Part shown: positions 1,857-62,020 of the stretch, one piece after another
How the letters are laid out: the number at the start of each line of letters is the position of its first letter
Numbering within the stretch: position 1 is the stretch's first letter
Source: Candidatus Omnitrophota bacterium
GTDB taxonomy: Bacteria; Omnitrophota; Gorgyraeia; Gorgyraeales; Gorgyraeaceae
DNA length: 64,000 bases
Direction: 5' to 3'
Assembly: GCA_018814825.1 (NCBI GenBank)
Contig: JAHIYJ010000090.1
Coordinates: 1,321-65,320, forward strand
Notes under the pieces: model-generated
What the model saw: only the letters and a program-made list of their open reading frames with translations
Told to the model about the DNA's origin: nothing
Database searches by the model: none
Made by a program: the position numbers and the translations under genes

Positions 1857-2880
1857 AGTCAAGAGAATACTGATAGTCAGGACTGACAGGATAGGCGATG
1901 TGGTGCTTTCAACGCCCGTGATTACGGCTGTAAGGGCCGCTTTTCCGGAAGCCTATATCGCGGTGATGGTTTCTCCCCAGACCAGGGAGATTGTTTCGGG
2001 CAACCCGTATCTTAATGAAGTCATAGCTTATGATAAAATCTCAAAACATAAAGAGTTCTTAAAAACTTTTTTATTCGCAAACTGGCTTAGGGGCAAGAGA
2101 TTTGATCTGGCTCTTATACTGCATTCCACGATAAGAATCAACATTATTTGCTGCCTCGCGGGTATCCCGAGAAGGATAGGCTATGCCAGGGGCAAGATGG
2201 ATTTTCTTTTAACCCATAGGCTGGAATATGTGAAACGGTTAGGAGAAAAGCATGAGATAGAATATTCGCTTGATGTATTACGTTCCTTAGGCGTAAAAGC
2301 GGAGCCATCGCCTCTTGTAATGCCTCTGAAAGAAAGCGTTGTTAAAGAGGCTGATAGTTTGCTATTCGAATCAGGTTTAAAAAAAGACGAGAGGTTCGTC
2401 GTTATCAGTCCCGGTGCCAGCTGTGTTTCCAGGATTTGGCCTTCCGCGAATTTTGCCAGATTGGCCGATATCCTGAAAGAGTGTTTTGGCCTGTCGACAG
2501 TTCTTGTTTCAGGTCCTGAGGAGGTAAAGATAGGAGAGAAGGTCAGGGAGTCGATGAGCAGTAAACCTGTTTTTTTATGCGGCAGGACGTCGCTGGGTGT
2601 TTTAGCGGCAGTATTGAAGCGTGCGTCATTATTAATCTCTAATGATTCAGGACCTGTCCATATAGCGTGCGTCGTTAAAACACCGGTTATTTCCATATTT
2701 TCAAGAAAACAAAAAGGGCTTAGTCCCACGAGGTGGGGGCCCTATGGCGAAAGAAACGCCATTATCCATAAAGACGTTGGATGCGTTAAATGCCTTGCGC
2801 ATAATTGCAGTAAAGGGTTTTTGTGCCTCTACTCGATAACCGTGGAAGAGGTGCTGGAGAAGGCAAGGGAGTTACTCTAA
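1843..2880 (+). CDS. ADP-heptose:LPS heptosyltransferase (GT9 family), paralog 3
   Basis: 345 aa. ILIVRTDRIGDVVLSTPVI, ..NDSGPVHIAC.. and a C-terminal Cys-rich motif. It overlaps the upstream gene by 14 nt, consistent with translational coupling. Confidence 0.8.
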   Translation: MDIAKVKRILIVRTDRIGDVVLSTPVITAVRAAFPEAYIAVMVSPQTREIVSGNPYLNEVIAYDKISKHKEFLKTFLFANWLRGKRFDLALILHSTIRINIICCLAGIPRRIGYARGKMDFLLTHRLEYVKRLGEKHEIEYSLDVLRSLGVKAEPSPLVMPLKESVVKEADSLLFESGLKKDERFVVISPGASCVSRIWPSANFARLADILKECFGLSTVLVSGPEEVKIGEKVRESMSSKPVFLCGRTSLGVLAAVLKRASLLISNDSGPVHIACVVKTPVISIFSRKQKGLSPTRWGPYGERNAIIHKDVGCVKCLAHNCSKGFLCLYSITVEEVLEKARELL

Positions 2881-2915
2881 CTTGACAAAACTTACATTGT
2901 AAGATTTGTCAAGTT
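2879..2915. repeat. 17-bp-arm palindrome AACTTGACAAAACTTAC-att-GTAAGATTTGTCAAGTT placed right after a stop codon and right before an SD (AAGGGGG)
   Basis: Read directly from the sequence. The arms have one mismatch. A second copy with compensatory changes is at 61984..62020. Confidence 0.6.
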
Positions 2916-2923
2916 AAGGGGGT

Positions 2924-3742
2924 ATGAAAATGGCAAGGCTTGTAGTTTTGGTTATTTTAGTGTGCTTGATGGTTGGGTGTGGGATAGCTGCTCAATATAG
3001 AATAGCGGAGCCTCCTGAGGATGTTTCAATAGAGGCCCCTGCCAAAAAACTGGACATCGGGGAAAAATTCACATACAAGGCGGAATGGCTTGGTATGGAT
3101 GTGGGCATTGCCACTTTGTCTGTGCAGGGCATTACGGAACGAAACGGCAGAAAAGTCTATCATATACTCGCCACGGCGGAAACAGTGCCTATTATCTCTA
3201 AGATCTATAAAGTCGAAGACAGGATTTCCAGTTACCTTGATACGGAGAAGCTTTACCCCGTAAGGTTTGAGAAGCAGCAGAGAGAAGGTGGTTATCGCTC
3301 AGATGAATATACTGATTTTGACCAGACTAAAGGAAAGGCTTATTATTTTTCCAGGCGGAACCACACCAAAAAAGAATATGAGATACCGGAAAAAGTCCAG
3401 GACCCCTTGAGCTGTATGTATTATTTCAGACTCCAGGACGTGGCCGTGGGAGAGTCTGTATTCGCGAATGTCAACACTGACGAGAAGAATTATCTGCTAG
3501 AGGCCAAGATACTCAAAAAAGGCATTGTCAGGATTGAGGGCGTGGGAGAATGGGAGGCTTTTATGGTTGAGCCTCTGCCCTGGTTCCAGGGTAAAGTGAC
3601 CAGAAAGGCGAAAGTCACTATGTGGCTTTCATCGGATGAGAAGAGGATACCCCTTTTACTGGTGACAAAAGGCATCCCTTTTGTGGGGACGGTTACCATA
3701 ACCCTCCAGAAAATAGAGTGCCTTGACACTGTGAAAGAATAA
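2924..3742 (+). CDS. Lipoprotein, DUF3108-like (LPS-locus associated), function unknown
   Basis: Signal peptide plus lipobox (MKMARLVVLVILVCLMVGCG). GEKFTYKAEWLGMDVGIATLSV resembles the DUF3108 motif. It sits inside the LPS core gene block. Confidence 0.45.
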   Translation: MKMARLVVLVILVCLMVGCGIAAQYRIAEPPEDVSIEAPAKKLDIGEKFTYKAEWLGMDVGIATLSVQGITERNGRKVYHILATAETVPIISKIYKVEDRISSYLDTEKLYPVRFEKQQREGGYRSDEYTDFDQTKGKAYYFSRRNHTKKEYEIPEKVQDPLSCMYYFRLQDVAVGESVFANVNTDEKNYLLEAKILKKGIVRIEGVGEWEAFMVEPLPWFQGKVTRKAKVTMWLSSDEKRIPLLLVTKGIPFVGTVTITLQKIECLDTVKE

Positions 3743-3776
3743 TGTTAAAATAGTCAGAATATAACGGGAATTATAA

Positions 3777-4715
3777 ATGTCCAAAGATATAAACTTAGAT
3801 AAACTCAAGACTTATCCAATAGCCAAAAGAAAAAGCGAGGTCTCTTACAAGGATTTTGCGAAACCTCCCTTAAAGAACGCCGCTTTCTCTGATTTTTATG
3901 ACTCCCTTCCCCGTATACTTTCGGGCACGAGCTTCAGGCAGGTCGTCGATGCCGTAATTTCAGCGCGCAAAAGGAAAAAACCCGTCATAGCCATGATGGG
4001 TTCGCACGTGATTAAATGCGGACTGAATCCGGTGATAATAGAACTAATAAACAGGAAAATAATTACCGCTATCGCATTGAACGGTTCTGGCGCTATACAT
4101 GATTTTGAGATCGCCCTTATCGGCAAGACATCGGAAGACGTGGAAGAGGCCCTCGAAGACGGCAGTTTTGGCATGGCTAAGGAAACAGCCCTGTATCTCA
4201 ATGGCGCGATGGGAGAGGCAGTGGAAAAGGATATAGGCGCCGGCCTCGCCATAGGTCAGGTTATAGAGGAAGAAAAGCTTTCTTTCAGGAAATTGAGCCT
4301 TCTGTATAACTGCGCCAGGCAGGGAATACCTGCCACCGTGCATATAGCCATAGGTACTGATATTATCCATCAGCACCCGAGTTCGGACGGCGCGGCTCTA
4401 GGAGAGGCTTCGTTGAGAGATTTTCATAATTTTATAGATGTAGTCGCGGGGCTGGGTGATGGAGGCGTGGTTCTGAACATTGGCTCATCAGTGATTCTGC
4501 CGGAGGTTTTCCTGAAGGCCCTTAATGTGGCCAGGAATCTAGGGCATAAAGTCAGGAATTTTACGGCATGCAATTTTGACATGATAAACCATTACAGGCC
4601 TTATCAGAATGTGGTTAAGCGTCCGACAAAATCAGGAGGTTCAGGATATACGATTATAGGCCATCACGAGATAATGATTCCGCTTCTGGCGCAGGCCGTT
4701 ATTGAGAAAATATGA
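3777..4715 (+). CDS. Deoxyhypusine synthase-like protein (DHS/homospermidine synthase fold)
   Basis: VIAMMGSHVIKCGLNPVIIELINRKIITAIALNGSGAIHDFEIAL aligns, from memory, with the DHS motif ..GYTSNLISSGIRE..VDVLVTTAGGVEEDLIKCL. IPATVHIAIGTD matches the later IP..A.TD segment. Confidence 0.4.
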   Translation: MSKDINLDKLKTYPIAKRKSEVSYKDFAKPPLKNAAFSDFYDSLPRILSGTSFRQVVDAVISARKRKKPVIAMMGSHVIKCGLNPVIIELINRKIITAIALNGSGAIHDFEIALIGKTSEDVEEALEDGSFGMAKETALYLNGAMGEAVEKDIGAGLAIGQVIEEEKLSFRKLSLLYNCARQGIPATVHIAIGTDIIHQHPSSDGAALGEASLRDFHNFIDVVAGLGDGGVVLNIGSSVILPEVFLKALNVARNLGHKVRNFTACNFDMINHYRPYQNVVKRPTKSGGSGYTIIGHHEIMIPLLAQAVIEKI

Positions 4716-5686
4716 GGAAGAACAGATTAAAAAAGATAATCCCGGCCTTTACCGATAAAAAGGTCCTTATAATAGGCGACCTGATACTGGATGAGTTTTT
4801 ATGGGGCGATGTCTCAAGGATATCACCGGAGGCGCCGGTGCCTGTCGTGTGGATCCGTTCTGAATCGTTTATGCCGGGCGGCGCGGCGAACGTGGCGAAT
4901 AACATTCAATCTTTCGGAGGTAAGACATATCTGGCCGGAGTAATCGGAATGGATGAACGGGGCAGGACGCTTAAAGAGCTCCTCAAAAAGAATGGCGTAG
5001 ATGTGGGAGGTATAGTTGTTGACAGCGAAAGGCCTACCATACTTAAGACAAGGGTCATTGCTCATCACCAGCAGGTTGTGAGGATTGACAAGGAAAAGAT
5101 GGATAACTTGAGCGCGGATCTTATAAGCCAGATTATAATGTATGTTAAGGCCATAATTATAGATATAGACGCCATTATAATAGAAGACTATGGCAAGGGT
5201 GTTATAACGCCCAGGTTATTACGCGAGGTCCTGAGGCTGGCAAAGAAGCATGGCAAAATAGTAATGGTAGACCCAAAAGAAGAGCATTTTAATTATTATA
5301 AAGGGGTGACAGGTATAACCCCAAATCATCACGAGGCGTCAAAGGCAACCGGCATAAAGGTAACGGACGATAAGAGCCTCATAAGAATAGGAAAGGAGTT
5401 CTTAAAAAAATTAAAATCAGAAAGTGTCCTCGTGACTCTTGGCGAGAACGGAATGCGGCTTTTTGAGAAAGGCGGCAGGATTACACATATACCAACCGTG
5501 GCACAGGACGTATTTGACGTATCAGGCGCGGGCGATACTGTCATAAGCACGTTTACGCTGGCGCTCGCGGCAGGGGCATCCATGATAGAGGCTGCCCATA
5601 TTTCTAATCTCGCGGCGGGTATAGTCGTGGGCAAGGTAGGCATCGCTACGGTAACGCAGGAAGAATTATTAAATAAGATAAAATAA
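4712..5686 (+). CDS. hldA: D-glycero-beta-D-manno-heptose-7-phosphate kinase (RfaE domain I, HldA-type; no adenylyltransferase domain)
   Basis: KVLIIGDLILDEFLWGDVSRISPEAPVPVVWI..MPGGAANVANNI is the RfaE/HldE kinase-domain signature. At 324 aa it is a kinase-only form. Confidence 0.8.
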   Translation: MRKNRLKKIIPAFTDKKVLIIGDLILDEFLWGDVSRISPEAPVPVVWIRSESFMPGGAANVANNIQSFGGKTYLAGVIGMDERGRTLKELLKKNGVDVGGIVVDSERPTILKTRVIAHHQQVVRIDKEKMDNLSADLISQIIMYVKAIIIDIDAIIIEDYGKGVITPRLLREVLRLAKKHGKIVMVDPKEEHFNYYKGVTGITPNHHEASKATGIKVTDDKSLIRIGKEFLKKLKSESVLVTLGENGMRLFEKGGRITHIPTVAQDVFDVSGAGDTVISTFTLALAAGASMIEAAHISNLAAGIVVGKVGIATVTQEELLNKIK

Positions 5687-5746
5687 AAAATGAGTGCTTG
5701 GTTATCAGCAGCTGATAGCTGATAACTGATAGCTGAAAGCTGATAT
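5687..5746. repeat. Heptamer-periodic inverted repeat, (AGCTGAT)n with a GTTATCAGC/GCTGATAAC stem
   Basis: The sequence reads gttatcagcagctgatagctgataactgatagctgaaagctgatat. The 7-nt register is visible by eye. Confidence 0.6.
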
Positions 5747-6505
5747 ATGGATGTTATAGGGATAATTCCGGCGAGATACGGCGCGACGCGATTTGAGGGC
5801 AAGCTTCTGGCTGACCTGTGCGGTAAGCCTGTTATACAGCACACATGGGAGAATGCCAAGAAGTCCAGATCAATAGAAGACCTTTTAATCGCTACTGACG
5901 ATAAGCGTATTTACAATACCGCTAAGGGCTTTGGCGCTAAAGCGGTATACACCTCAAAAGCTCACAAAAGCGGTTCAGACAGGCTGACAGAGATCGCCAG
6001 CCAGTTTGAGGCCAAAATCATCGTGAATATCCAGGCAGATGAGCCATTGCTGCACCCCTCGATGATCGACAATATAGTAGACCCTCTCCTTAGAGATAAG
6101 GATATTCAGATGGCAACTCTCTGTCATAAGATTGAATCAGAGCACGAGCTCTTTGACAGGAATACGGTAAAAGTCGTGCTCGACAGGAAGGGTTTCGCCC
6201 TGTATTTTTCCAGAGCGGCCATTCCTTATAAGCCGCGTTCTATCCATAACGGCAACAGGATCTCGAATTGTTATAAACATATCGGACTCTACGCTTATAC
6301 CAGGGATTTTCTTTTCACGTTCAAGAGCCTGCCTCAGTCAACGCTGGAGAAGATAGAGAAATTAGAGCAGTTAAGAGTGATAGAGAACGGATATAAGATA
6401 AAAGTGGTTGAGACAAAATACGATACGGTGGGCATAGATACTCCTGAGGACCTGGCCCGGGCGAGGGAATTGATACAGGGGTCAAAGCAGTTGAGTTTTT
6501 TGTAA
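5747..6505 (+). CDS. kdsB: 3-deoxy-manno-octulosonate cytidylyltransferase (CMP-Kdo synthetase)
   Basis: IIPARYGATRFEGKLLADLCGKPVIQHTWENA is a KdsB-type N-terminus. 252 aa. Confidence 0.85.
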   Translation: MDVIGIIPARYGATRFEGKLLADLCGKPVIQHTWENAKKSRSIEDLLIATDDKRIYNTAKGFGAKAVYTSKAHKSGSDRLTEIASQFEAKIIVNIQADEPLLHPSMIDNIVDPLLRDKDIQMATLCHKIESEHELFDRNTVKVVLDRKGFALYFSRAAIPYKPRSIHNGNRISNCYKHIGLYAYTRDFLFTFKSLPQSTLEKIEKLEQLRVIENGYKIKVVETKYDTVGIDTPEDLARARELIQGSKQLSFL

Positions 6506-6534
6506 ATAGAAGTTGGTTTATGGGTATGGAAACT

Positions 6535-6605
6535 GGTTAAGAAATTAGAAGTAGAAGCTGGGTACTGGATATCAGGCTTCCAGTACCCACTTCCAGCTTC
6601 CTAGC
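6535..6605. repeat. Hairpin repeat of the GAAGCTG/CAGCTTC heptamer family (GGGTACTGG-loop-CCAGTACCC core stem)
   Basis: The sequence reads gaagctgggtactggatatcaggcttccagtacccacttccagcttc, lying between kdsB and pyrG. Confidence 0.55.
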
Positions 6606-6649
6606 AAGCCTCCACAACAATAAACCAGCTTCAACAGCCTAAATTTAAT

Positions 6650-8272
6650 ATGCCAAAGTATATATTCATAACAGGGGGCGTTGTTTCCAGCCTCGGGAAA
6701 GGTATTACCTCAGCCTCTATAGGCAAGCTTCTTGAATCCAAGGGCCTGAAGATAACAATACAGAAATGCGACCCTTACATAAACGTGGATCCCGGGACCA
6801 TGAATCCATTCCAGCACGGCGAGGTATATGTGACAGACGACGGAGCCGAAACAGACCTGGACCTTGGCCATTACGAGCGTTTTACAAGTGTGCCTCTCGG
6901 CAAGGATAACAATATCACTACCGGGAAAATCTATGATTCAGTTATTACAAAGGAACGCAGGGGTGATTATCTCGGAGCGACCATCCAGGTCGTCCCTCAT
7001 ATAACGAACGAGATAATATCTAACATAAAAAAGGTATCGAGCGGCAAGGACGTTGATATTGTCATCTGCGAGATAGGGGGGACAGTAGGTGACATAGAAA
7101 GCCTTCCTTTTCTTGAGGCCATCAGGCAGTTCAAGCAGTACGTGGGCAGGGGCAATGCCATAAATATCCACCTGACCCTGGTCCCATATATCAAGGCCGC
7201 AGAGGAAGTAAAGACCAAGCCCACGCAGCACAGTGTCGGCAAGATGAGGGAAATAGGTATCCAGCCGGATATATTGATCTGCAGGACCGAGAAACCCATT
7301 TCAAAGAAGGTAAAACAGAAAATAGCCCTTTTCTGCAACGTGGATGAAGACGCTGTAATAGATACGCCTGACGTGAAAGATATATATGAGATCCCTTTAT
7401 TGTTCCAACAACAAGGACTGGGGAAGATTATATTAAGGCTGCTGGAATTGAGATATAGAGAAGGTGACCTGAGCGCGTGGCGCGATAAAGTGGTTAAAAG
7501 GGCGCTTCACCCGACAAAAAGGGTCACGATAGCCGTTGTCGGAAAATATATAGAGCTGAATGACGCGTATAAATCTATCTATGAGTCCTTAAAGCACGCA
7601 GGCGTGGAAAATGACGCTAAAGTGGACATCAGGAAGATAGATTCGGAGGAGATAGAGGAAAAAAACGTGGATAACTTTCTTAATGACGCGGACGGGATCC
7701 TTGTCCCGGGGGGATTCGGCTCACGCGGCATAGAGGGTAAGATCAGGGCAATAAAATTTGCCAGGGAAAATAATATACCCTTTTTTGGCATATGTCTAGG
7801 TATGCAGTGCGCTGTCGTAGAGTTTGCCAGAAACGTATGCAAGTTAAAAAAGGCCCATTCAACGGAATTTGACAAATCAACGCCCTTCCCTGTAATAAGC
7901 CTGCTCGAGGAACAAAAAAGAGTGAAAGATATGGGGGGCACCATGAGATTAGGCGCCTATCAATGCAGGCTGAAAAAGGCGACGCGCACGTACGAGGCGT
8001 ATGGTAAAGAGAGGATCTCAGAAAGACACAGGCACAGGTATGAGTTTGACACGCACTATAAAAGGAGCATGGAAAAAGAAGGCCTTGTCATATCAGGGAC
8101 TTCTCCTGATCTTAGGCTGATGGAGGTAGTCGAGATAAAAAACCATCCATGGTTTGTGGCGTGCCAGTTTCATCCTGAGTTTAAATCAAAACCTGATAAC
8201 TGCCATCCGCTGTTCAGGGATTTTGTAAAAGCGTCTCTGGCCCACGGGAAAAAAGGCAAGACAAGCAAATGA
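6650..8272 (+). CDS. pyrG: CTP synthase
   Basis: [64 protein letters not shown], plus a C-terminal GATase domain (GICLGMQ). 540 aa. Confidence 0.95.
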
Positions 8273-9105
8273 CGAAAGAGATAAAGATAGGGAATATAAA
8301 GATAGGCGGCAATAATACCATTACCTTAATCGCCGGGCCATGTGTTATCGAGAGCGAGCGGCACGCCATGCGTCACGCGGAAGCTATCAAAAAGATATGC
8401 GGTAAACAAGAGATATCTTTTATATACAAATCCAGCTATGACAAGGCGAACCGCTCAAATGTCAAATCTTACAGGGGGCCTGGCATAGAAAAGGGCCTTA
8501 AAATACTGGCGAAGGTAAAGAAAGAAACAGGTGTTCCTGTATTAAGCGATGTACACTGCAGGGCGGAGCTTTCAGAAGCGTCTGGTGTCCTTGATATCAT
8601 CCAGATACCGGCTTTTTTATGCAGGCAGACGGATTTCATAGTAGAAGCGGCAAAGACAAAAAAGGTCATCAATGTGAAAAAGGGCCAGTTCCTTGCGCCA
8701 TGGGACATAAAAAACATAGTAGAAAAAATAGAGGTCAGCGGCAATAAAAATATCATCATTACGGAACGCGGCACGATGTTCGGGTACAATAATTTAGTCA
8801 GTGATTTCAGGTCCCTGGATATAATGAGAGAGTTTGGCTATCCTGTGGTTTATGACGCGACTCACAGTGTCCAGCTGCCGGGGGGCAGAGGTTCTTCTTC
8901 GGGCGGAGATAGGAAGTTTGTGGCGTCTCTTTCCCGCGCGGCAGTAGCTGTCGGGTGCGATGGATTATTTTTGGAAGTACACGAAAACCCAGACAAAGCG
9001 CCATGCGATGGCCCGAATATGATTGATTTGAAGACGCTGGAAAAATTATTGAGTGAAGTCAAAGATATAAATCGGGTAATATTTCAAACCCGCATTGCAA
9101 TTTAA
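8269..9105 (+). CDS. kdsA: 2-dehydro-3-deoxyphosphooctonate aldolase (Kdo-8-P synthase)
   Basis: [46 protein letters not shown]. 278 aa. Confidence 0.9.
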
Positions 9106-9120
9106 TTGCAATGCGGGTTT
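9086..9120. repeat. Palindrome with 15-bp arms AAACCCGCATTGCAA and a 5-nt centre TTTAA, spanning the kdsA stop codon
   Basis: Read directly from the sequence. Identical arms recur at 59309..59343. Confidence 0.7.
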
Positions 9121-9130
9121 GAAAATAAGG

Positions 9131-10096
9131 ATGGATATGCTAAAACAACGCGCTAAACAGGTCCTTAAAATCGAGTCAGACTCGATAAAACGGCTAATAT
9201 CCAGGATAAACAAGGATTTTGAGAAGGCCGTTAACCTGATATTCGCCTCAAAAGGCAGGGTAGTTGTTACCGGCATGGGCAAGGCCGGTATTATCGGGGA
9301 AAAGATTTCCGCTACACTTGCATCCACTGGCACGCCGAGCCTGTGGATGCATTCAGCGGAGGCCATACACGGCGACCTGGGCCGGGTAAAAAAAGAAGAC
9401 CTGATAATAGCCATATCGAATAGCGGTGAAACAGAAGAAACCATAAGGCTTATCCCTCACATAAAGAAAATAGGAGCCAGGCTTATTGCCATAACAGGTA
9501 ATATGCGCTCCACTCTGGCGAAGAACAGCGACGCTGTTCTGGATGTCTCGATAAAAGAAGAGGCGTGTCCGTTAGGCCTTGCGCCTATGGCAAGCACTAC
9601 CACTATGCTCGCGATGGGCGACGCTCTTTGCGCGGCATTGATAGACAAGAGAGGTTTTAAAAAAAGTGATTTCGCCTTCCTCCATCCCGGCGGGAGCCTG
9701 GGCAAGCAATTGCTTCTTAAGGTGGAGGACATTATGAGAAAAGGCCCTTCAAACCCTATTGTAAAAGAGAATGTGAAAGTGAAAGACGTGCTGTTAAAGA
9801 TTACGACCGCGAGGGCCGGGAGCGCAACGGTGGTTGACAAAAAAGGCAGGTTGGCAGGTATATTCACGGACGGTGATTTGAGAAGGCATTTAGAGGAGGG
9901 GCTTGATCTTTCAAAGAAAAAAGTAAAAGACGTGATGACGAAAAAACCTAAGGCCATGAAAAAAGGAGCGCTTGCCGTTGAGGCGCTGAAGGTTTTGCAG
10001 GATTACAGGATTGACGAGATTCCGATAGTGGATGAGAAGGGCAGGGCAATAGGGCTGGTGGATGTGCAGGATCTGCTGAAAGCAGGGCTTATATGA
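9131..10096 (+). CDS. kdsD: Arabinose-5-phosphate isomerase (KdsD/KpsF; SIS domain plus tandem CBS domains)
   Basis: SIS motif VVVTGMGKAGIIGEKISATLASTGTP and a C-terminal CBS pair. The listed 9095 start lies inside the palindrome. ATG 9131/9137 after AGGA is the more plausible start. Confidence 0.85.
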   Translation: MDMLKQRAKQVLKIESDSIKRLISRINKDFEKAVNLIFASKGRVVVTGMGKAGIIGEKISATLASTGTPSLWMHSAEAIHGDLGRVKKEDLIIAISNSGETEETIRLIPHIKKIGARLIAITGNMRSTLAKNSDAVLDVSIKEEACPLGLAPMASTTTMLAMGDALCAALIDKRGFKKSDFAFLHPGGSLGKQLLLKVEDIMRKGPSNPIVKENVKVKDVLLKITTARAGSATVVDKKGRLAGIFTDGDLRRHLEEGLDLSKKKVKDVMTKKPKAMKKGALAVEALKVLQDYRIDEIPIVDEKGRAIGLVDVQDLLKAGLI

Positions 10097-10608
10097 TAAA
10101 AGAACGCGCTAAAAAAATCAAATTACTGATACTTGATGTAGACGGCGTCCTTACAGAAGGCCATATAATCTACGATAATTTCGGGGATGAGCTTAAATGT
10201 TTTAACGTCCAGGACGGGCTGGGCATGTTCCTTCTTAATAAGGCTGGCATAAAGTCCGTGATCATAACTGCTAAAAAAAGCAAGGCCGTAAAGCGCAGGG
10301 CCCATGACATGAGGGTCTCTGCGGTATATTCAGCCCACGATAAACTTAAAGTCTACCAGAAGGTTCTTAAGAGATTCAGGGTAAAGAATGAAGAAGTATG
10401 TTTTATGGGAGATGAGCTTTTGGACCTGCCATTGATAAAAAGGGCAGGGCTCGCTATAGCGCCGCCGAACGCGGCGGAAGAGGTGAAAAACACAGCCCAT
10501 TATGTTACCAAAGAACACGGTGGCAGAGGCGCGGTGCGCGAAGTAATAGAAATCATCCTGAAATCCCAGGGCCTTTGGGATAAGGTAATCGCGAGGTATA
10601 TGGTATGA
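10093..10608 (+). CDS. kdsC: 3-deoxy-D-manno-octulosonate 8-phosphate phosphatase (HAD family)
   Basis: LLILDVDGVLTEGHIIYDNFGDELKCFNVQDGLG..KSVIIT..LFMGDELLDLP. 171 aa. Confidence 0.85.
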   Translation: MIKERAKKIKLLILDVDGVLTEGHIIYDNFGDELKCFNVQDGLGMFLLNKAGIKSVIITAKKSKAVKRRAHDMRVSAVYSAHDKLKVYQKVLKRFRVKNEEVCFMGDELLDLPLIKRAGLAIAPPNAAEEVKNTAHYVTKEHGGRGAVREVIEIILKSQGLWDKVIARYMV

Positions 10609-11282
10609 CGCGGTTTTTCAGGTTTGTTATCGTAGGAAGCGCTATTTTTCCAGCGTTATTTTTTTGCCAGTGCGCCTTCGCGTTTGATGACGGCGACTGG
10701 CAATACTGGGATACAGAAAGCGCATCCGCAGAGCTCTCTCGTAAATGGAGGTTTGGCATTGAAGAGGAGTTTCGCCGGGGCGATGATATGAAAAATCCCT
10801 ACTATAACCATACCGATATAGAGGTTGTATATTCTGGGCTGGCAGACTGGTTTGACCTTGGATTGAATTACAGGCATATAAACGAGGAAAGAAGCGGGGG
10901 CTGGAAAACAGAATACAGGCCACATCTTAACGGCACTGTCAAATGGAAATGCCGCGGCTTTTCCTTAAGTAACCGCGGAAGGTTAGAATTTAGAGAGAGA
11001 GAGGATGCGGATGAGGCCTGGCAGTACAGGAATAAAATATCAGTTAAGCCGCCCATGTCGTTCACGAAACATCAGATCCAACCCTATATCGCGGATGAGA
11101 CATTTTTTGATTCTGATTCAAAAGAGCTCAATAGGAACAGGTTTTACTCAGGCTTTTCATTTCAAATATTCAAAAATATAAAAGCGGAACCATATTACCT
11201 GTGGCAACGCTCCAAATCGTCTTCCTCGGGTAAGTGGTCGGATTATAATATAATAGGGACAAAATGGAAGCTTTTGTTTTGA
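10605..11282 (+). CDS. Secreted, W/Y-rich hypothetical protein (possible outer-membrane protein)
   Basis: N-terminal signal peptide (FVIVGSAIFPALFFCQCAFA). No confident family assignment. Confidence 0.4.
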   Translation: MTRFFRFVIVGSAIFPALFFCQCAFAFDDGDWQYWDTESASAELSRKWRFGIEEEFRRGDDMKNPYYNHTDIEVVYSGLADWFDLGLNYRHINEERSGGWKTEYRPHLNGTVKWKCRGFSLSNRGRLEFREREDADEAWQYRNKISVKPPMSFTKHQIQPYIADETFFDSDSKELNRNRFYSGFSFQIFKNIKAEPYYLWQRSKSSSSGKWSDYNIIGTKWKLLF

Positions 11283-11311
11283 TGAGTCAGGCAGGGATGT
11301 GTTGGGGTTGA

Positions 11312-12469
11312 TTGAAAATGACAAAACAACAGAGAATAAATGAATTAGAGCAGGAGCTTTTAAAGGCACATCAGGACATTGAAAAGCTGGTCAGGATTAA
11401 ATCCGATTTCGTGTCCATAATCTCTCATGAATTACGCACGCCTCTAACGTCTATCAAGGAGAGCGTTTCCCTGGTTTTAGACGGGGTGACAGGCCCTCTA
11501 AATGAAAACCAGAGTGAGTTCCTGGCTATCGCCAAAAATAATATAGGCAGGCTCACCAGGCTTATAACAGACATACTTGATTTTTCAAAGCTGGAATCCG
11601 ACAGGATTAGTATGCGTAAAAGAAAAGTCAATATAAACGAGCTGATAAAAGAAGCCTATTCCATGGCCGGGACTGGCGCCGGTAAGAAGAAGCTGAGTTT
11701 TGATCTGGAGCTCTCTGACGCCTTGGAAGACGTATGGCTTGACCCCGAAAGGCTCGGCCAGGCCTTAAATCATCTCATATCTAATGCTATAAAGTTTAAC
11801 AGAGAAAATGGCAGGATAAAGATCATTAGCTCAATGGAAAATATTGACGGCCGCGGTGCGGTAAAAGTTGTCATAGAAGACACAGGCATAGGCATCATGG
11901 AGAACGATATCCCCAATCTTTTTAATCATTTCAGCCCGCTGGACACAAGCATGACGCGAGCCTCGAACGGTGTAGGGCTTGGCCTCGCCATAAGTAAGCA
12001 GATAATAGAGCTGCATGGCGGGGATATATGGGTGGAGTCAAAGAAAGACGTGGGGAGCAACTTTATTTTTACCCTGCCTGTATATAAGGAGGGCGAAGAG
12101 TTTGAATTTATCCTTGAAGAGTCTATAGAGCGCTCAGAGCAAAATGATATGAATTTAGCCCTTATCCTATTTGGGATTGATTCCCATAAAGATTCCAAAA
12201 AAGAGACATTAGACCGGATAGAGAAGATTATAAGCTCAAGCGTTAGAGGCCCTGAGGATAAAACCGTGAGATTTAAAAAAGGGGAGTTTGTGGCTGTTAT
12301 GGCCGGGACTGACAGGACAGGCGCGATGAAGATAATCAACAGGCTCAGAGGCAAGCTGGAAACGCCTGTATGTTTTGGGCTGGCCATCTATCCTGATGAA
12401 TCTCTGGATAAAGATAAGCTGGTAAAAAAGGCTGAAAAGGATTTAAAGACAGGTAAACATTTCATATAA
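11312..12469 (+). CDS. Cytoplasmic sensor histidine kinase (HisKA + HATPase_c) with a C-terminal degenerate GGDEF-like domain
   Basis: H-box SHELRTPLTSI. G-boxes DTGIGI and GVGLGLAIS. In the C-terminal segment the GG(D/E)EF position reads RFKKGEF and the upstream DxD reads GID, so cyclase activity is unlikely. Confidence 0.65.
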   Translation: MKMTKQQRINELEQELLKAHQDIEKLVRIKSDFVSIISHELRTPLTSIKESVSLVLDGVTGPLNENQSEFLAIAKNNIGRLTRLITDILDFSKLESDRISMRKRKVNINELIKEAYSMAGTGAGKKKLSFDLELSDALEDVWLDPERLGQALNHLISNAIKFNRENGRIKIISSMENIDGRGAVKVVIEDTGIGIMENDIPNLFNHFSPLDTSMTRASNGVGLGLAISKQIIELHGGDIWVESKKDVGSNFIFTLPVYKEGEEFEFILEESIERSEQNDMNLALILFGIDSHKDSKKETLDRIEKIISSSVRGPEDKTVRFKKGEFVAVMAGTDRTGAMKIINRLRGKLETPVCFGLAIYPDESLDKDKLVKKAEKDLKTGKHFI

Positions 12470-12481
12470 CGGGGGTGCGGG

Positions 12482-12847
12482 ATGGATAAGAAAAAGATAC
12501 TGGTGGTAGACGATGACCCTGATTTGCTTAGGATGCTGAAACTCAGGATGGAATCGGAAGGCTATGAGTTTTTGTCAGCTCAGGACGGAGAAGAGATGTT
12601 AAAGATAATGAAGGCTAAAAGGCCGGATGCCGTGCTTTTGGATATAATGCTTCCCAAGGTTGACGGGTATACTGCGTTACGCGAGATGAGAAAAGAAGAT
12701 TCCTTTAAAGATACACCTGTGATAGTTATGACCGCGAAAGAGCAAAAAAAAGTAGGAGATCTGTTTGCGCTCGAAAAAGTAGCATTTTTCGTGGAAAAAC
12801 CTTTTGATTCAAAAGACTTGTTAGAGAAAATAAAAGAGGTGTTATGA
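12482..12847 (+). CDS. Single-domain CheY-like response regulator (paralog 1 of 3)
   Basis: ILVVDDDPD..DAVLLDIMLPKVDGY..VIVMTAKE..EKPF. Confidence 0.8.
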   Translation: MDKKKILVVDDDPDLLRMLKLRMESEGYEFLSAQDGEEMLKIMKAKRPDAVLLDIMLPKVDGYTALREMRKEDSFKDTPVIVMTAKEQKKVGDLFALEKVAFFVEKPFDSKDLLEKIKEVL

Positions 12848-13215
12848 TGAACAGAAAAAGGATACTTATAGTGGATGATGAGGATGACCTGAGAAAGATG
12901 TTGAGGTTCAGGTTGGAGGCGGCGGGGTATGATATTGATGAAGCCGGCGATGGACAGGAAGGCCTTGATAAGGCGAGGTCTCACTGGCCGGATCTGATTC
13001 TGCTGGATCTTATGCTTCCCAAGATCGACGGTTACAAGGTATGCAGGATGCTCAAGTTTGATGAGAAGCATAAGCATAAACCTGTTATCATGTTCACTGC
13101 GCGCGCCCAGGAGAAAGACATGGAGCTCGGCAAAGAAATGGGGGCTGACGCGTATATAACCAAACCATTTGAGCCTAAGGTTCTTTTGGATAAGATAAAG
13201 GAATTATTAAAATAG
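12844..13215 (+). CDS. Single-domain CheY-like response regulator (paralog 2 of 3)
   Basis: ILIVDDEDD..DLILLDLMLPKIDGY..VIMFTAR..TKPF. The start overlaps the upstream stop. Confidence 0.8.
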   Translation: MMNRKRILIVDDEDDLRKMLRFRLEAAGYDIDEAGDGQEGLDKARSHWPDLILLDLMLPKIDGYKVCRMLKFDEKHKHKPVIMFTARAQEKDMELGKEMGADAYITKPFEPKVLLDKIKELLK

Positions 13216-13256
13216 CGTATAGCGGGCAGCGTTTAGCGGATAGGAAAAACTAAAAC

Positions 13257-13643
13257 ATGGAGGATAATATGCCAGGCCAAAAAAAGATTCTTGTGATTGA
13301 TGACGAAGAGGACATACTGAAGCTCCTTAAGATAAGGCTGGAGCAGGAAAATTTCAATATCATAACTGCCTCTGACGGTGACGTGGGCGTGAAGGCGGCT
13401 GAACAGGAAGTGCCGGATCTGATCATTCTTGATATCATGATGCCTAAGATGGACGGCTATAGCTGTCTTAAGGAGATAAGAGGCCTTCCGAAGACAAAGG
13501 ATATCCCTGTTCTTATGCTGAGCGGGAAGGAAGAGGAAAAGGTGCGGGATCTATTCGCATTTCAGAAAATAAGCGGTTATATAGAGAAGCCATTTGAGCT
13601 GGATAATGTAGTGGCAAAGGTAAAAGAGATACTTAATAGATAA
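13257..13643 (+). CDS. Single-domain CheY-like response regulator (paralog 3 of 3)
   Basis: ILVIDDEED..DLIILDIMMPKMDGY..VLMLSGK..EKPF. ATG 13269 is an alternative start. Confidence 0.8.
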   Translation: MEDNMPGQKKILVIDDEEDILKLLKIRLEQENFNIITASDGDVGVKAAEQEVPDLIILDIMMPKMDGYSCLKEIRGLPKTKDIPVLMLSGKEEEKVRDLFAFQKISGYIEKPFELDNVVAKVKEILNR

Positions 13644-13659
13644 GGAAAAAAAGGCTATT

Positions 13660-15354: not shown

Positions 15355-15420
15355 CCTTATCGTTTACCGTGTACCGTTTACCGCACGAGACGGTACACGG
15401 TAAACTGTAAGCGAAACACG
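15355..15420. repeat. Heptamer-periodic hairpin (CGTTTAC/CGTGTAC units; 15-bp stem TTTACCGTGTACCGT / ACGGTACACGGTAAA)
   Basis: The sequence reads cgtttaccgtgtaccgtttaccgcacgagacggtacacggtaaactgtaagcgaaacacgg, lying between pilB and pilC. Confidence 0.65.
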
Positions 15421-15431
15421 GAGGTTTTAAG

Positions 15432-16646
15432 TTGCCTACTTACATTTATAAAGCCAGGGATGCCACAGGTAAGTTAGTGAAAGGCACCATGGACGCGTCC
15501 AATAGAGACGAACTTACAGAGAAACTCCAAAGAATGGGGTATATGACTACCTATGCCGCGGAGATCACTCCCGGAGTCAGGGTCGAATCTATATTTGAAA
15601 GGATGAGGAGGATAAGCGCCGAGGACATGATAATATTTAATGTCCAGCTCGCCAATATGATAAATTCAGGTATACCTATTCTGGTCTGCCTGGATACGCT
15701 GGATAAACAGATTGAAAACAGGACGCTGAGGATCACCGTCGGTAATGTGAAGAGAAATCTTGAGTCAGGCGACAGCTTCTCTCAGGCCCTGGCGAGGCAC
15801 CCGCGGGTATTCTCCAAGTTATTTATAAATATGGTAAAGACCGGTGAGGCCAGCGGAAAGCTGGATACTGTTTTGACCGGGTTTGCTGAATTTACTGAAC
15901 GACAGGAAGAGTTAAAGCAGAAGATTAAAGGTGCGCTTTTTTACCCGATCATACTTTTATTCGCCGGTATCGCGGTCACGATTTTCATAGTTACTTTTAT
16001 TATCCCTCAGTTTGCCGAGATTTTCATGAAGGTAGGCATAAAATTACCCGCGCCTACATTGATCCTTTATAGGATTGGGACGGCCATCAAGAGTTACTGG
16101 TATTTAATAGGCCTTTTTTTTGCGGTAACATGCATAGGCGTAAAATATTATATAAGGACAGAAAAAGGTAGATTTAATTTTGATAGACTTAAATTAAAAG
16201 CACCTGTGCTTGGCCCATTGTTTCGTAAAGTGGCGATATCGAGATTTGCCAGGACATTGGCGACGCTTGTCTCAAGCGGTGTTTCTATATTGGTATCACT
16301 GGATATTACAAAGGAGGTAATTGGGAATGAAGTACTGAGTCGTGTTATTACAAATGTCCGCGCTTCTGTTGAGAAAGGAGAAGGCATTGCCGAGAGCCTG
16401 AAGATAAGCGGGGAATTCCCCCAGGATACAGTGCAGATGATCTCGGTAGGAGAGGAGACAGGAAATTTAGAGGGCATGCTGAATAAGATCTCGGATTTTT
16501 ACAATATGTCTTTAGGATACACCATAAAAAAGTTGACTACTATAATAGAGCCTTTATTTTTGGTCATCATGGGGAGCATGGTGGGTTTTATCATGGCGTC
16601 GATGCTTTTACCGATGTTTGACATGATGAAGGTATTGAGACATTGA
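15432..16646 (+). CDS. pilC: Inner-membrane platform protein (GspF/PilC family), copy 1
   Basis: Apparent TTG start after GGAGG. MPTYIYKARDATGK.. plus two T2SSF repeats. 404 aa. Confidence 0.85.
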   Translation: MPTYIYKARDATGKLVKGTMDASNRDELTEKLQRMGYMTTYAAEITPGVRVESIFERMRRISAEDMIIFNVQLANMINSGIPILVCLDTLDKQIENRTLRITVGNVKRNLESGDSFSQALARHPRVFSKLFINMVKTGEASGKLDTVLTGFAEFTERQEELKQKIKGALFYPIILLFAGIAVTIFIVTFIIPQFAEIFMKVGIKLPAPTLILYRIGTAIKSYWYLIGLFFAVTCIGVKYYIRTEKGRFNFDRLKLKAPVLGPLFRKVAISRFARTLATLVSSGVSILVSLDITKEVIGNEVLSRVITNVRASVEKGEGIAESLKISGEFPQDTVQMISVGEETGNLEGMLNKISDFYNMSLGYTIKKLTTIIEPLFLVIMGSMVGFIMASMLLPMFDMMKVLRH

Positions 16647-16686: not shown

Positions 16687-16725
16687 TTTTTCATTGAACA
16701 CTGAATGCAAAAAAAGGGGGTGGTT

Positions 16726-17210: not shown

Positions 17211-17211
17211 T

Positions 17212-17963: not shown

Positions 17964-17964
17964 T

Positions 17965-58481: not shown

Positions 58482-59326
58482 TAAAAGTGAAGGTCTTGTT
58501 TTTGATATCGGCCGTGATTATATGCCCTGTATGCATGGCGCAGGAGGATAATAAGGCGGCTGATCAGGAGATCAACGGTTTTTCTCTTGTGCAATATAGT
58601 GACTCCGGTGACAAGAAGTGGGAACTGAACGGACGATCAGCGGAACTGGAAGAAAATAGCGTAAAGATAGATGATGTCTCCATCTTAGCGTCAGGAGATG
58701 AAACGTTTCTTAAATTAAAGGCGAGAGAGGGTAATTTTGACAGGGATGAGAGCCTAGCGCGTCTTAAGAAAGACGTTGTCCTGAAAACAACAGACGGCAT
58801 TACTATCAAAACAGACGCGCTCAACTGGGATGCTGAGGCAAAGAACGTTTTTACGGAAGAACCTGTAAACATAAAAAGGGCGGATTTCGAGGTCAATGGC
58901 AGGGGCGCCACCTGTGATCTGGAGAATAAGACAGCTGAGGTAAAAAAAGACGTGACGGCAAACATTAACGCCGCTATGCCAGCGTATATGGCTGCTGTAA
59001 GCGGTGATAGACAGAAAACAGTAATAACCTGTGACGGCCCGCTCGAGATAAATTACAGCAAAAACAAAGCCTCTTTTCTAAATAACGTTAAAGTCGAAGA
59101 TTCTCAGGGTAATATACTGGCGGACAGGATAGATGTTTATTTCGATGCTGGCTCAAGACGCGTAAAGTGCGTTGTGGCGAGAGGCGGCGTGGAGATTATT
59201 AACGGAGGAAATGTTACTTACAGTGAAAAGGCCATATATCTTGTTGATGAGGGCCGGGTGATTTTGCCAAAAAGGCCCAAATTAGTAATCCAAAGCGAAC
59301 CAAATCTCAAACCCGCATTGCAATAG
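58478..59326 (+). CDS. lptA: Periplasmic LPS-transport protein of the LptA/LptC (OstA-like) family
   Basis: Signal peptide (MIKVKVLFLISAVIICPVCMA). The OstA-like beta-jellyroll repeats have the ..TGN..L pattern, and the gene sits immediately upstream of lptB. At 283 aa it is longer than a typical LptA and may be an LptC-LptA fusion. ATG 58478 overlaps the upstream stop. The listed 58436 start is inside the preceding gene. Confidence 0.6.
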   Translation: MIKVKVLFLISAVIICPVCMAQEDNKAADQEINGFSLVQYSDSGDKKWELNGRSAELEENSVKIDDVSILASGDETFLKLKAREGNFDRDESLARLKKDVVLKTTDGITIKTDALNWDAEAKNVFTEEPVNIKRADFEVNGRGATCDLENKTAEVKKDVTANINAAMPAYMAAVSGDRQKTVITCDGPLEINYSKNKASFLNNVKVEDSQGNILADRIDVYFDAGSRRVKCVVARGGVEIINGGNVTYSEKAIYLVDEGRVILPKRPKLVIQSEPNLKPALQ

Positions 59327-59343
59327 ATTTGCAATGCGGGTTT
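59309..59343. repeat. Second copy of the AAACCCGCATTGCAA 15-bp-arm palindrome (centre TAGAT), spanning the lptA stop codon
   Basis: Identical arms to 9086..9120. Both copies sit at junctions within LPS operons. Confidence 0.7.
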
Positions 59344-59358
59344 GATGAGGATAAAGAC

Positions 59359-60093: not shown

Positions 60094-60101
60094 GTGAGGC
60101 C

Positions 60102-60136
60102 ATAAGTTACGTCAATCTTTGATTGACGTAACTTAT
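60102..60136. repeat. Perfect 16-bp-arm palindrome ATAAGTTACGTCAATC-ttt-GATTGACGTAACTTAT, 9 nt after the lptB stop
   Basis: Read directly. It probably acts as a terminator or stability hairpin. No U-tract follows. Confidence 0.6.
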
Positions 60137-60312
60137 TCGGCCGAACTTATCCTTGACATTTTCTGGTGCTTGAAATTGTTTTATATGGTAAGCATACCAG
60201 AAGATGTCAAGGATGAACGCAGCGCAAGGCGCTGCAGCTACAACTTCACACTTTTTTGTGTGTCACGGATGTGTGAAGTAATTGCTTTGCTCGCAATGAC
60301 AGGTGGTGTATA

Positions 60313-61365
60313 GTGAAATCCAGCATTAAAAAGCTAAAAAATTGCAAAAAGATAGTAGAAGTTAAACTTGCCCCCGATAAAGTTAAAGAGGAATTTGACA
60401 GGGTCTACGAGGGCATCAAAAAGGTCGCGAATGTGCCAGGTTTCAGGCCCGGGATGGCCCCGCGGGATCTACTGGAAAAACACTACAATGAGACCGCCAG
60501 GGAAGAGGTGATAAAAAAACTAGTGCCGGATACCTATAAGATGATCATCGAAGAACATAAGCTCGACCCCATAGGCTACCCTGAGATAACGGACTTGAAG
60601 CTTGATCTGGATGGGGGGTTCTCCTATACCGCCAGTATTGAAACCAGGCCGGAGCTTAGTCTTAAGAATTACAGAGGCATTAAACTAAAAAAGAAAAAAA
60701 GAGAGGCGAAGGAAGAGGATGTCCAGAAGAACCTCCAGGCCCTGAGAGAGACATATGCCCAGAAGGCGCCCAAAGAGGGAGGAGAGGAAAAGGAAAAGAT
60801 ATTGCCTAAACTGGATGATGACTTTGCGAAAGACCTGGGACTGGAAAATCTGGAGAAGCTGAAGGAAGCCGTAAAGTTAAATTTACAGCATAGGCTTGAG
60901 CAGGAAAGCCGGGCTGACCTGGAGATGCAGGTCATAAGTTACCTTACAGACGGCGTTAATTGCGAGGTACCGAATTCCCTGGTAAATTCAGAAAAAGATA
61001 GATTATTAAAGGACGCTAACAGCCGCATCGCGTACATACAGGCTACGCAGAAAAAACAAACTCCTGATAAAAAATTCGAACTCAGCGATAAAGAGAGAAA
61101 AGAGCTGGAGGAAAATTCCCGTAAACAGGCGATCCGTCAGGTAAAGACGTTTTTTATACTCGATAAAATAGCCCATGCCGAGAAGATATATATTAAAAGC
61201 GAAGAGCTTGACAGGGAGATAGAAAATATGGCGGAAGAGTATCAAAAGCCGAAAAAAGAGATAGAGGATTACCTTGAAAAAAATCACAAGATGGATGAGA
61301 TAGCGGTTAATATGCGTAACGCGAAGGTCATGGAGTTTTTATTAAAGGAGGCGAAAGTCTCCTAA
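60313..61365 (+). CDS. tig: Trigger factor (ribosome-associated chaperone), short form apparently lacking the FKBP/PPIase domain
   Basis: The N-terminal ribosome-binding domain carries the GFRPG motif (VPGFRPGMAPRDLL). A C-terminal arm domain is present. At 350 aa it is about 80 aa short of typical TF. clpP follows. Confidence 0.7.
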   Translation: MKSSIKKLKNCKKIVEVKLAPDKVKEEFDRVYEGIKKVANVPGFRPGMAPRDLLEKHYNETAREEVIKKLVPDTYKMIIEEHKLDPIGYPEITDLKLDLDGGFSYTASIETRPELSLKNYRGIKLKKKKREAKEEDVQKNLQALRETYAQKAPKEGGEEKEKILPKLDDDFAKDLGLENLEKLKEAVKLNLQHRLEQESRADLEMQVISYLTDGVNCEVPNSLVNSEKDRLLKDANSRIAYIQATQKKQTPDKKFELSDKERKELEENSRKQAIRQVKTFFILDKIAHAEKIYIKSEELDREIENMAEEYQKPKKEIEDYLEKNHKMDEIAVNMRNAKVMEFLLKEAKVS

Positions 61366-61377
61366 AGAGGAGGAAAC

Positions 61378-61977
61378 ATGTCTATGCTAGTCCCCATAGT
61401 CGTTGAGCAGTCAGATCGAGGCGAACGCGCGTATGATATTTACTCAAGATTATTAAAAGACAGGATCATATTCATAGGATCCGCCATAGATGACGTTGTG
61501 GCGAATCTTGTCATTGCCCAGATGCTCTTCTTACAGACAGAGGATCCTGATAGGGACATCAATATATATATAAATACCCCGGGAGGCATGGTAACATCCG
61601 GGCTTGCCATATATGATACCATGCAGTTCGTTAAGCCGGATATCTGCACTTATTGTATGGGACAGGCCACCAGCATGGGCGCCGTACTCCTGGGCGCGGG
61701 CACCAAGGGTAAACGCCTTGCCCTCCCTAACTCCAGGGTAATGATACATCAGCCATGGGGCGGAGTGCAAGGCCAGGCAGCCGACATCAATATACAGGCA
61801 AAGGAGATCCTGAAGATGCGAGACAGGATTAATGATATACTCGCGAATCACACTGGACAGAATCTGGATAAGATACAAAAAGACACTGACAGGGATTATT
61901 TCATGTCAGCCGAAGAGGCAAAAGAGTATGGGATTATAGACGAGGTAATAGTAAGCACCAAGAAAAACAAAAAATAA
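61378..61977 (+). CDS. clpP: ATP-dependent Clp protease proteolytic subunit
   Basis: [44 protein letters not shown] carries the Ser-His-Asp triad context. 199 aa. Confidence 0.9.
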
Positions 61978-61983
61978 CCGCTT

Positions 61984-62020
61984 AACTTGACGAAAGTTAC
62001 AATGTAACTTTCGTCAAGTT
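61984..62020. repeat. Perfect 17-bp-arm palindrome AACTTGACGAAAGTTAC-aat-GTAACTTTCGTCAAGTT, placed right before the SD of the aminotransferase gene
   Basis: Second member of the family seen at 2879..2915. The two copies differ by two compensatory base-pair changes. Confidence 0.65.

Follow-up and report, generated by a model that had tools for sequence, protein, structure and literature searches.

A family of palindromic repeats of about 43 bases at gene junctions of Omnitrophota

Palindromic repeats of about 43 bases, located between the stop codon of one gene and the ribosome-binding site (RBS) of the next, form a previously undescribed family in the genomes of Omnitrophota. We came upon this element, which we call the junction palindrome, in a stretch of 64,000 nucleotides from a Candidatus Omnitrophota bacterium (contig JAHIYJ010000090.1, positions 1,321 to 65,320; "the window" in the following), which carries two copies. 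These two copies are genuine members of a repeat family and not an isolated pair. The repeats multiply within a genome, are homogenised or replaced in a genome-specific manner, and between strains are gained, lost or exchanged for other hairpin families by short-patch recombination. It is rather probable that the junction palindrome is a dispersed and lineage-restricted quasi-palindromic element of about 43-45 bp, similar to repetitive extragenic palindromic (REP) sequences or miniature inverted-repeat transposable elements (MITEs), which sits in the gap between the stop codon and the Shine-Dalgarno (SD) sequence and becomes an intercistronic hairpin in the mRNA. On the best reading of the data the two window copies are neither a gene-specific switch nor a dedicated regulator of the two genes and behave like small mobile elements.

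The two window copies and their family

Copy 1, which is of the TAACTTGAC type, spans positions 2876-2918 of the window (cTAACTTGAC-AAAAC-TTAC-ATT-GTAA-GATTT-GTCAAGTTAag) and lies between the gene of a family-9 glycosyltransferase (heptosyltransferase) and a DUF3108 gene. Copy 2 spans positions 61981-62023 (CTTAACTTGAC-GAAAG-TTAC-AAT-GTAA-CTTTC-GTCAAGTTAAG) and lies between clpP and the gene of a class V aminotransferase (agt). The palindromes themselves are given without strand; all genes of the window are on the plus strand. The initial annotation had described the pair as a 17-3-17 core at 2879-2915 and 61984-62020 with two differing but compensated arm positions, and we find exactly this core in both copies, together with the described exchanges (A:T versus G:C, and C:G versus G:C). 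The full palindrome of copy 1 (2878-2916) has arms of 19 nt and is imperfect due to a single A.A mismatch at arm position 12, and that of copy 2 (61981-62023) has perfect arms of 21 nt. The very stable RNA hairpin that had been anticipated is also borne out by computed folding, with energies of -21.9 kcal/mol for copy 1 (z = -5.6) and -28.4 kcal/mol for copy 2 (z = -7.2), far below those of shuffled sequence. A pattern search returned five arm matches where 0.58 are expected, and isolated half-sites occurred in the window at chance level. The covariance model R1, which comprises 54 copies, matched only copies 1 and 2 in the window, with 63.8 and 67.1 bits, respectively. No Rfam family reached its gathering score within the window, nor was any tRNA or tmRNA detected there.

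Both copies are fitted tightly between their neighbouring genes. The stop codon TAA of the heptosyltransferase gene (2878-2880) is part of the 5′ arm of copy 1, and between the stop codon of clpP (61975-61977) and copy 2 there are only 3 nt. On the other side, the SD sequence AAGGGGG of the DUF3108 gene (2916-2922, plus strand) has as its first A the last paired base of copy 1, and an extended helix of this copy sequesters the SD sequence. The DUF3108 gene likely starts with the ATG at 2930, which fits the AAGGGGG better than the alternative ATG at 2924; an exact look-up of the encoded protein gave no record. The motif AAGG(G/T) had been read as the RBS that directly follows each hairpin. For copy 1 the AAGGGGG does abut the hairpin; the "AAG", however, belongs to the element's own outer arm, where CTT is its pairing partner, and family members have it in common. 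The aminotransferase gene (start at 62038) has its actual SD sequence, AAGGAG, at 62028-62033 on the plus strand, 4 nt 3′ of copy 2 and outside the repeat, and the sequence 3′ of the element is not conserved among the family copies. What holds throughout the family is the adjacency as such: the element stops just 5′ of the SD sequence, 10-18 nt ahead of the following start codon.

The family was delimited with two scans. When one genome per species (185,579 species) was searched with the pattern CTTGAC-N5-TTAC-N3-GTAA-N5-GTCAAG, 25 loci were found, 24 of them in the Omnitrophota metagenome-assembled genome (MAG) GCA_043822665.1 and one in another Omnitrophota MAG. The former contains at least 24 copies and is called the copy-rich MAG below. 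A metagenome scan, in which only the 10-bp outer arms were fixed and an interior of 17-25 nt was left free, gave 65 loci; 16 of the 22 matches with an interior of 21 nt pair at seven or more of ten inner positions, a pairing that the search did not demand. With 25 loci in genomes and dozens in metagenomes, the family goes beyond the two copies from which the initial annotation had reasoned, and its concern about n=2 is removed. Its full consensus (fam2) is GCTTAACTTGAC-GAAAC-TTAC-AWT-GTAA-GTTTC-GTCAAGTTAAGC, and other subfamilies have, for instance, the interiors AAAACGAGT-AAT-ACTCGAAAT and ACTTTTGAC-AAT-GTCAAAAGT. Viral contigs yielded only two incidental matches with non-palindromic interiors. 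The window itself belongs to Omnitrophota, as its aminotransferase has graded homologs in this phylum from 100% down to 70% identity. A literature search brought up nothing on palindromic repeats in Omnitrophota.

Eleven soil contigs (L029, L030, L038, L054, L057, L059, L063, L068, L077, L078 and L090; L numbers denote individual loci) carry the 10-mer GTTAACTTGAC three times at a spacing of about 22 bp. These triplets sit between conserved genes, one of which codes for a short-chain dehydrogenase (SDR). The sites, our Group C, are probably an unrelated operator-like feature which shares the 10-mer with the junction palindrome.

Pairing, position and turnover

The structural statistics were obtained with 54 aligned copies, of which 52 are distinct. 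The element measures 43-45 bp and consists of two inverted arms of 20-21 bp. From the outside inward there follow an outer stem, (G)CTTAAC-TTGAC, one purine:pyrimidine (R:Y) pair, a block of A/T, an inner stem of 4-5 bp and a loop which mostly reads AWT. The outer 11 bp are invariant across the 54 copies, in part because the searches had fixed them. Either A:T or G:C stands in column 13/33. Columns 15-16/30-31 are most commonly unpaired (2×2 A.A or T.T, in 31-32 of the 52 distinct copies), and covariation via UA, GC, AU and CG with few breaks is seen in column 17/29 and in the four loop-proximal pairs (18-21/25-28). Over the 54 copies 86% of the cells are paired; the covariation score of 0.282, compared with 0.145 in shuffles, was reached by none of 500 shuffles and is higher than in all slid controls. 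The inner stem occurs in at least eight different sequences, which differ between genomes and yet are complementary, and its pairing is maintained through many sequences. An outer stem that stays invariant around cores that are specific to each genome points to a recognition protein acting in trans.

These statistics change the meaning of the two compensated exchanges, which had been taken as the signature of selection that acts on pairing instead of primary sequence. This reading is not supported, since sequence conservation extends over the outer 11 bp and the AWT loop and the commonest variants carry the unpaired 2×2 block. The exchanged positions merely reflect alternative arm types (GAAAC, GATTC, GAAAG, AAAAG, AAAAC and AATTC), which are combined non-complementarily in 18 of 27 copies. 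We also compared the strands in gene-sense orientation. A.A mismatches (38) are about as frequent as U.U mismatches (36), and the asymmetry between G.U-type (23) and A.C-type (15) mismatches is not significant; since both comparisons are neutral, a reading at the RNA level gains no support from them. The orientation of the asymmetric form relative to the gene direction is likewise without significant bias: fam2 has 11 versus 5, Group A leans the other way, and the family of locus L096 described below has 5 versus 6.

The position of the element relative to genes is narrowly defined. Not one of the 54 copies lies wholly within an open reading frame (ORF), and 44 are found between co-directional genes (2 convergent, 2 divergent). 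The preceding gene has its stop codon at -10 to +3 nt of the element in 25 of 46 cases; 13 of the 46 upstream ORFs run 4-10 nt into the element and terminate inside it, either with the TAA in CTTAAC or with the TGA in TTGAC. The consensus, as read from the sequence, offers stop codons in all three frames on both strands and can therefore land on or replace a gene end harmlessly. The genes on the 3′ side are unrelated to each other. Their start codons follow at a modal distance of 10-18 nt, which leaves room for an SD sequence only, and the element must therefore be transcribed through, which speaks against efficient termination.

Among the exact sequences of the copy-rich MAG, asymmetric 41-mers are the most frequent and stand in identical form at five and at three distinct loci; symmetric sequences reach two, and one odd variant is also present at two loci. 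That a mismatched form recurs identically at several loci indicates copying and not independent mutation.

Turnover can be followed in the block lpxL-lptC-lptB-tig-clpP-agt-serA, which is syntenic in all fetched relatives. At the junction between clpP and agt a fam2-type element is located 3 nt past the stop codon in the window and in L095 (81% identity; the copy-rich MAG). L092, L094 and L055 (85-87%) have at the identical nucleotide position the same outer arms with a CGAGT-type interior, and in L091 (99%), L093, L099 and L101 there is no element. Over lptB, tig, clpP and agt the window has 97-99% identity to L091, and yet all three spacers between these genes are unrelated (60094-60313, 61348-61383 and 61982-62037 of the window). 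What divergence there is within the genes is concentrated at the end of lptB (its last ~70 nt) and at the beginning of agt (its first ~20 nt). Replaced spacers together with divergence clustered at the gene ends are the signature of short-patch recombination which imports other junction alleles, and the pair L092/L093 (99.85% identical) displays an equal pattern of spacer replacement. At the junction of copy 1 the 97%-identical strain L107 has a palindrome of GTAG type instead, and in the copy-rich MAG the two genes overlap without any element; copy 1 is therefore lineage-specific. The covariance model detected no copies in the close relatives L091 and L107. To sum up, the operon junctions behave as hypervariable, recombining alleles.

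Further hairpins at the junctions and RAYT-like genes

The junction palindrome is not the only hairpin at these sites. A third palindrome after lptB (60102-60136, ATAAGTTACGTCAATC-TTT-GATTGACGTAACTTAT), already pointed out in the initial annotation, is real and has perfect arms of 16 nt; it represents a different family of the same class. Its ortholog between lptB and tig of L095 agrees with it in the outer arms and differs in the interior, and the flanking pairs are compensated (GGCC/GGCC versus GGGC/GCCC). The "first" palindrome family of the window has one copy at 9082-9124 between kdsA and kdsD (TTTCAAACCCGCATTGCAATT-T-AATTGCAATGCGGGTTTGAAA) and a second at 59307-59345 between lptC and lptB, the latter being retained in L091. 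In these two copies of the TCAAACCCGCATTGCAA palindrome the stop codons of kdsA and lptC, respectively, are located in the loop, so that the left arm encodes the last residues of the proteins. Identical copies of the TCAAACCCGCATTGCAA family are present in L051 (6692-6734) and L107 (4548-4588 and 14219-14259).

In L096, an 80% relative, the covariance model also detects a sister family (TAACTTTACAYTTYAAC...GTTRAARTGTAAAGTTA). This family of TAACTTTAC type, with a length of 43 nt, occupies 15 of the 19 junctions of the 21-kb L096 locus (1521-20169) in both orientations and is also found in L097 and L098. In 10 of 12 copies the preceding gene ends at a TAA that the element itself supplies, and one T.G and one C.A mismatch are retained in all copies.

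Other junction hairpins in these genomes are REP-like palindromes of GTAG type, for example TGTAGGGGACCCTTAAGGGTCCCCTACA in the copy-rich MAG, and hairpins made of tandem repeats of 7 to 11 nt. In this MAG copies of fam2 directly abut GTAG-type palindromes, and a composite of fam2 with CACATTAGTAGGGGACCCTTAAGGGTCCCCTACTAATGTG, TGCCTACAAAAAGGAAATTCCTATACTA and TCAAGTTAAG is repeated four times (L002 7009-7132, L016 1053-1175, L024 2912-3035 and L025 ~5610-5728). It looks as if a GTAG-type unit of ~76 nt had been inserted at the end of fam2 with a 10-bp repeat, TCAAGTTAAG. A clean insertion of a GTAG-type palindrome (TTTATTAATTTATCCACACTGTAGGGGAGGTTTAAGCCTCCCCTACAGTG) is found at 8834-8887 of the 97%-identical strain L107, flanked by a duplication of CTCAGA(A)TATA, and the corresponding empty site is at 3743-3776 of the window. 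Tandem-heptamer hairpins (e.g., CAGCCTT../..AAGCTGA, CCGTTTA..) are located at 15356-15411, 21983-22055 and 63197-63245 of the window; the last of these, between agt and serA, is common to L091 and L099 with differing repeat numbers. Analogous hairpins from 7- to 11-mer repeats are present in L095, L099, L103 and L092.

The long spacer between lptB and tig contains two additional inverted repeats (60149-60214, ATCCTTGACATTTTCTGGT..ACCAGAAGATGTCAAGGAT; 60236-60286, AGCTACAACTTCACAC..GTGTGAAGTAATTGCT), which are missing from L092-L094, where the spacer has 12 nt. The trigger factor gene that follows (60313-61365) codes for 350 amino acids with N- and C-terminal domains and without a match to the peptidyl-prolyl isomerase (PPIase) domain; trigger factors of 348-364 amino acids, likewise without a PPIase match, are encoded in all fetched Omnitrophota relatives.

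The Omnitrophota lineage encodes Y1 transposases resembling REP-associated tyrosine transposases (RAYT-like) and carries REPs of GTAG type. A regular-expression search for HUH...YxxxNP yielded one RAYT-like gene, and a homolog was then examined. These genes (L051 3137-3742 and L106 4001-4483; PF01797, with NCBIfam REP_Tyr_transpos below its cut-off) are flanked by inverted motifs centred on GACGTC (GGGGACGTCTTAC / AAAGACGTCCCT). The same motif pair brackets a stretch of ~170 nt in the agt-serA spacer of L092-L094. A tblastn search of all loci with an IS608 TnpA query gave no match, and clustering of the ORFs across the loci did not reveal a recurrent neighbouring transposase.

Interpretation and relation to known elements

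In the interpretation that we favour the junction palindrome would be a non-autonomous REP/MITE-like element, and a sequence-specific protein would recognise it in hairpin form, by way of its invariant outer stem and its internal loop. Read-through into the polycistronic mRNA would produce a hairpin of 20-21 bp with a predicted folding energy of -22 to -30 kcal/mol. Such an intercistronic hairpin, having the length of an RNase III substrate, may most plausibly act as a processing or 3′-end-protecting structure which uncouples the cistrons. REPs and the intercistronic sites of phage T7 are examples of hairpins that serve as RNase III-type processing sites or as 3′-end protectors. The RNase III sites of the T7 early mRNA and the stabilising REPs of malE-malF resemble the junction palindrome in being intercistronic hairpins of ~20 bp with an internal loop, which leave or protect a hairpin at the 3′ end of the upstream message; those are, however, unique sites, and the junction palindrome is a dispersed repeat family.

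Several observations weigh against this interpretation. No transposase or recombinase could be tied to the junction palindrome, and both RAYT loci that were inspected have the GACGTC-centred motifs and not the junction palindrome at their flanks. At the junction of clpP and agt the element occupies the exact same position in relatives of 81-87% protein identity, and such persistence would be expected of a selected function at least as much as of an element that is purely selfish. A clean pair of filled and empty sites with a target-site duplication was not found, every case being a replaced patch or a deletion. Part of the invariance of the outer arms was imposed by search patterns that fixed those bases. 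Finally, the role in the mRNA is one that we infer, and the tests for strand asymmetry are neutral towards it.

A rival explanation along the lines of the initial annotation makes the hairpin a dedicated cis-regulatory RNA whose pairing would be selected to set transcript ends or to control translation initiation or coupling of the downstream gene, with one RNA-binding factor or RNase shared by all copies. Part of the initial interpretation is supported: this is a genuine family with a covarying inner stem, and it stands next to the SD sequence, with the hairpin ending 10-18 nt before the start codon and the extended helix of copy 1 sequestering the SD sequence. Moreover, the clpP-agt junction is occupied in relatives of 81-87% by elements with changed yet complementary cores, and the sister family keeps a fixed stop-codon register at most L096 junctions. 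Against such a regulator speak the lack of strand asymmetry and the occurrence of the asymmetric form in both orientations, the mismatches in the most abundant variants, the presence or absence of the element among strains of 97-99% identity, the unrelated downstream genes and the missing Rfam match; we regard it as unlikely. An intrinsic, possibly bidirectional terminator, with sequence shared among copies by chance, is very improbable. The hairpins are strong and directly follow stop codons, and the scanner marks the minus strand of copy 2 as terminator-like, but this match faces no gene. The coding strand has no T-run (U-tract in the RNA) after the AT-rich stem, and the next start is so close that there is no room for a promoter, so that an efficient terminator would silence essential downstream genes. 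A sigma-70 promoter was rejected as well: 34 nt separate the TTGAC taken for a -35 hexamer from the element's 3′ end, the hexamers 16-18 bp further on (TTTCGT, TTCGTC and TCGTCA) are not -10 boxes, and the scanner finds no site.

The outer arms, which are invariant across genomes around a changing interior, could also be recognition boxes of a DNA site for a sequence-specific protein, that is, an attC-like or Xer/dif-like recombinase site or a nucleoid or regulatory operator. The likeness to attC goes some way. The R″/R′ boxes of attC have the consensus RYYYAAC...GTTRRRY, which the terminal heptamers GCTTAAC...GTTAAGC fit, and common to both are an imperfect hairpin with an unpaired block, a variable interior and homogeneity within a species; the short variable loop, the independence of orientation and the placement after ORFs in co-oriented arrays agree with this as well. 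In attC, however, an unpaired central spacer directly follows inside the R box, there are extrahelical L-box bases, and the length is ~57 bp or more. In the junction palindrome the seven base pairs inside the R-like box (TTGAC[R]A/T[Y]GTCAA) are fully paired and conserved, the 2-nt unpaired block comes only 7 bp further in, and 43-45 bp are too short for known attC sites. Also, the flanks are not cassettes in arrays but housekeeping genes in conserved synteny (lptB-tig-clpP-agt-serA), and no integrase is linked to the element (intI elsewhere in the genome was not searched for). Isolated half-sites are not above chance, covariation of an inner stem is unexpected for a duplex operator, and the sites lie at stop codons within operons and not in promoter regions. 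A DNA site of this kind is therefore quite improbable.

Returning to the mobile element, we compared it with the REP and REPIN sequences mobilised by RAYTs in Enterobacteria, Pseudomonas and Stenotrophomonas. Like these it is a short, numerous and almost exclusively intergenic imperfect palindrome (PMC3686654), with a copy number of at least 24 in one MAG. Genome-specific classes with compensated stem changes, mosaics with other palindromes as in bacterial interspersed mosaic elements (BIMEs) and a frequent location between co-transcribed genes are further common traits (PMC3686654), and the lineage does encode RAYT-like Y1 transposases. The refined definition of REPs, however, requires a conserved 5′ tetranucleotide GT[A/G]G followed by a palindrome (PMC3686654), and the consensus of the junction palindrome, GCTTAACTTGACGAAACTTACAWTGTAAGTTTCGTCAAGTTAAGC, contains neither GTAG nor GTGG, its sole GTAA adjoining the loop. 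Inverted copies flanking a single-copy RAYT were not seen at the two inspected loci. The copies are single, long and near-perfect hairpins of 20-21 bp and not doublets of short REPs as in REPINs; one inverted doublet with a distance of 17 bp exists in L032. Finally, it is the outer stem that is conserved across genomes here, unlike in REPs, where the stems are the variable part.

The Correia/nemis MITEs of Neisseria are co-transcribed and are cleaved or bound by RNase III, with symmetric or asymmetric ends deciding between cleavage and protection (PMC2649163). They are non-autonomous inverted repeats, as the junction palindrome probably is too, and share with it two types of ends that give symmetric and asymmetric hairpins, TA termini and presence or absence between strains (PMC2649163). 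In contrast to the 43-45 bp without core of the junction palindrome, Correia elements have 104-157 bp with a core region, an IHF (integration host factor) site and promoter-forming ends; there is no sequence similarity, and a target-site duplication is not demonstrable for the junction palindrome. The terminal inverted repeats of MITEs are present, but trivially so, as in any palindrome. Each end carries TA or TAA, but since TA is its own complement it prolongs the palindrome, and no clean empty/filled pair was found. We therefore file the junction palindrome under the known class of dispersed bacterial palindromic repeats as a distinct family.

A bolder generalisation, which we put forward with considerable doubt, is a phylum-wide "junction punctuation": genome-specific hairpins of ~43 nt with TAAC-TTKAC termini, an obligatory internal mismatch, an AWT-type loop and a stop-codon register, set at up to 15 of 19 junctions in one relative, which would be kept homogeneous within genomes by a dedicated hairpin-recognising enzyme (a transposase, recombinase or nuclease, not a classical RAYT). 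If true, this would be a new class of elements which both spread and define the cistron boundaries of mRNA.

Omnitrophota are uncultivated. Their tightly packed co-directional operons are populated by fast-turnover hairpins precisely between stop codon and RBS. Unusual about the junction palindrome are its register with stop codons, its invariant termini around cores that differ from genome to genome, and the turnover of junctions among strains of 97-99% identity. As a sequence tag it may serve for strain typing and for recognising Omnitrophota contigs, and it cautions annotators that genes have mosaic ends and starts at such junctions. The family offers a tractable case for the question whether such hairpins are selfish DNA or co-opted mRNA punctuation, in which the recognition protein could be identified.

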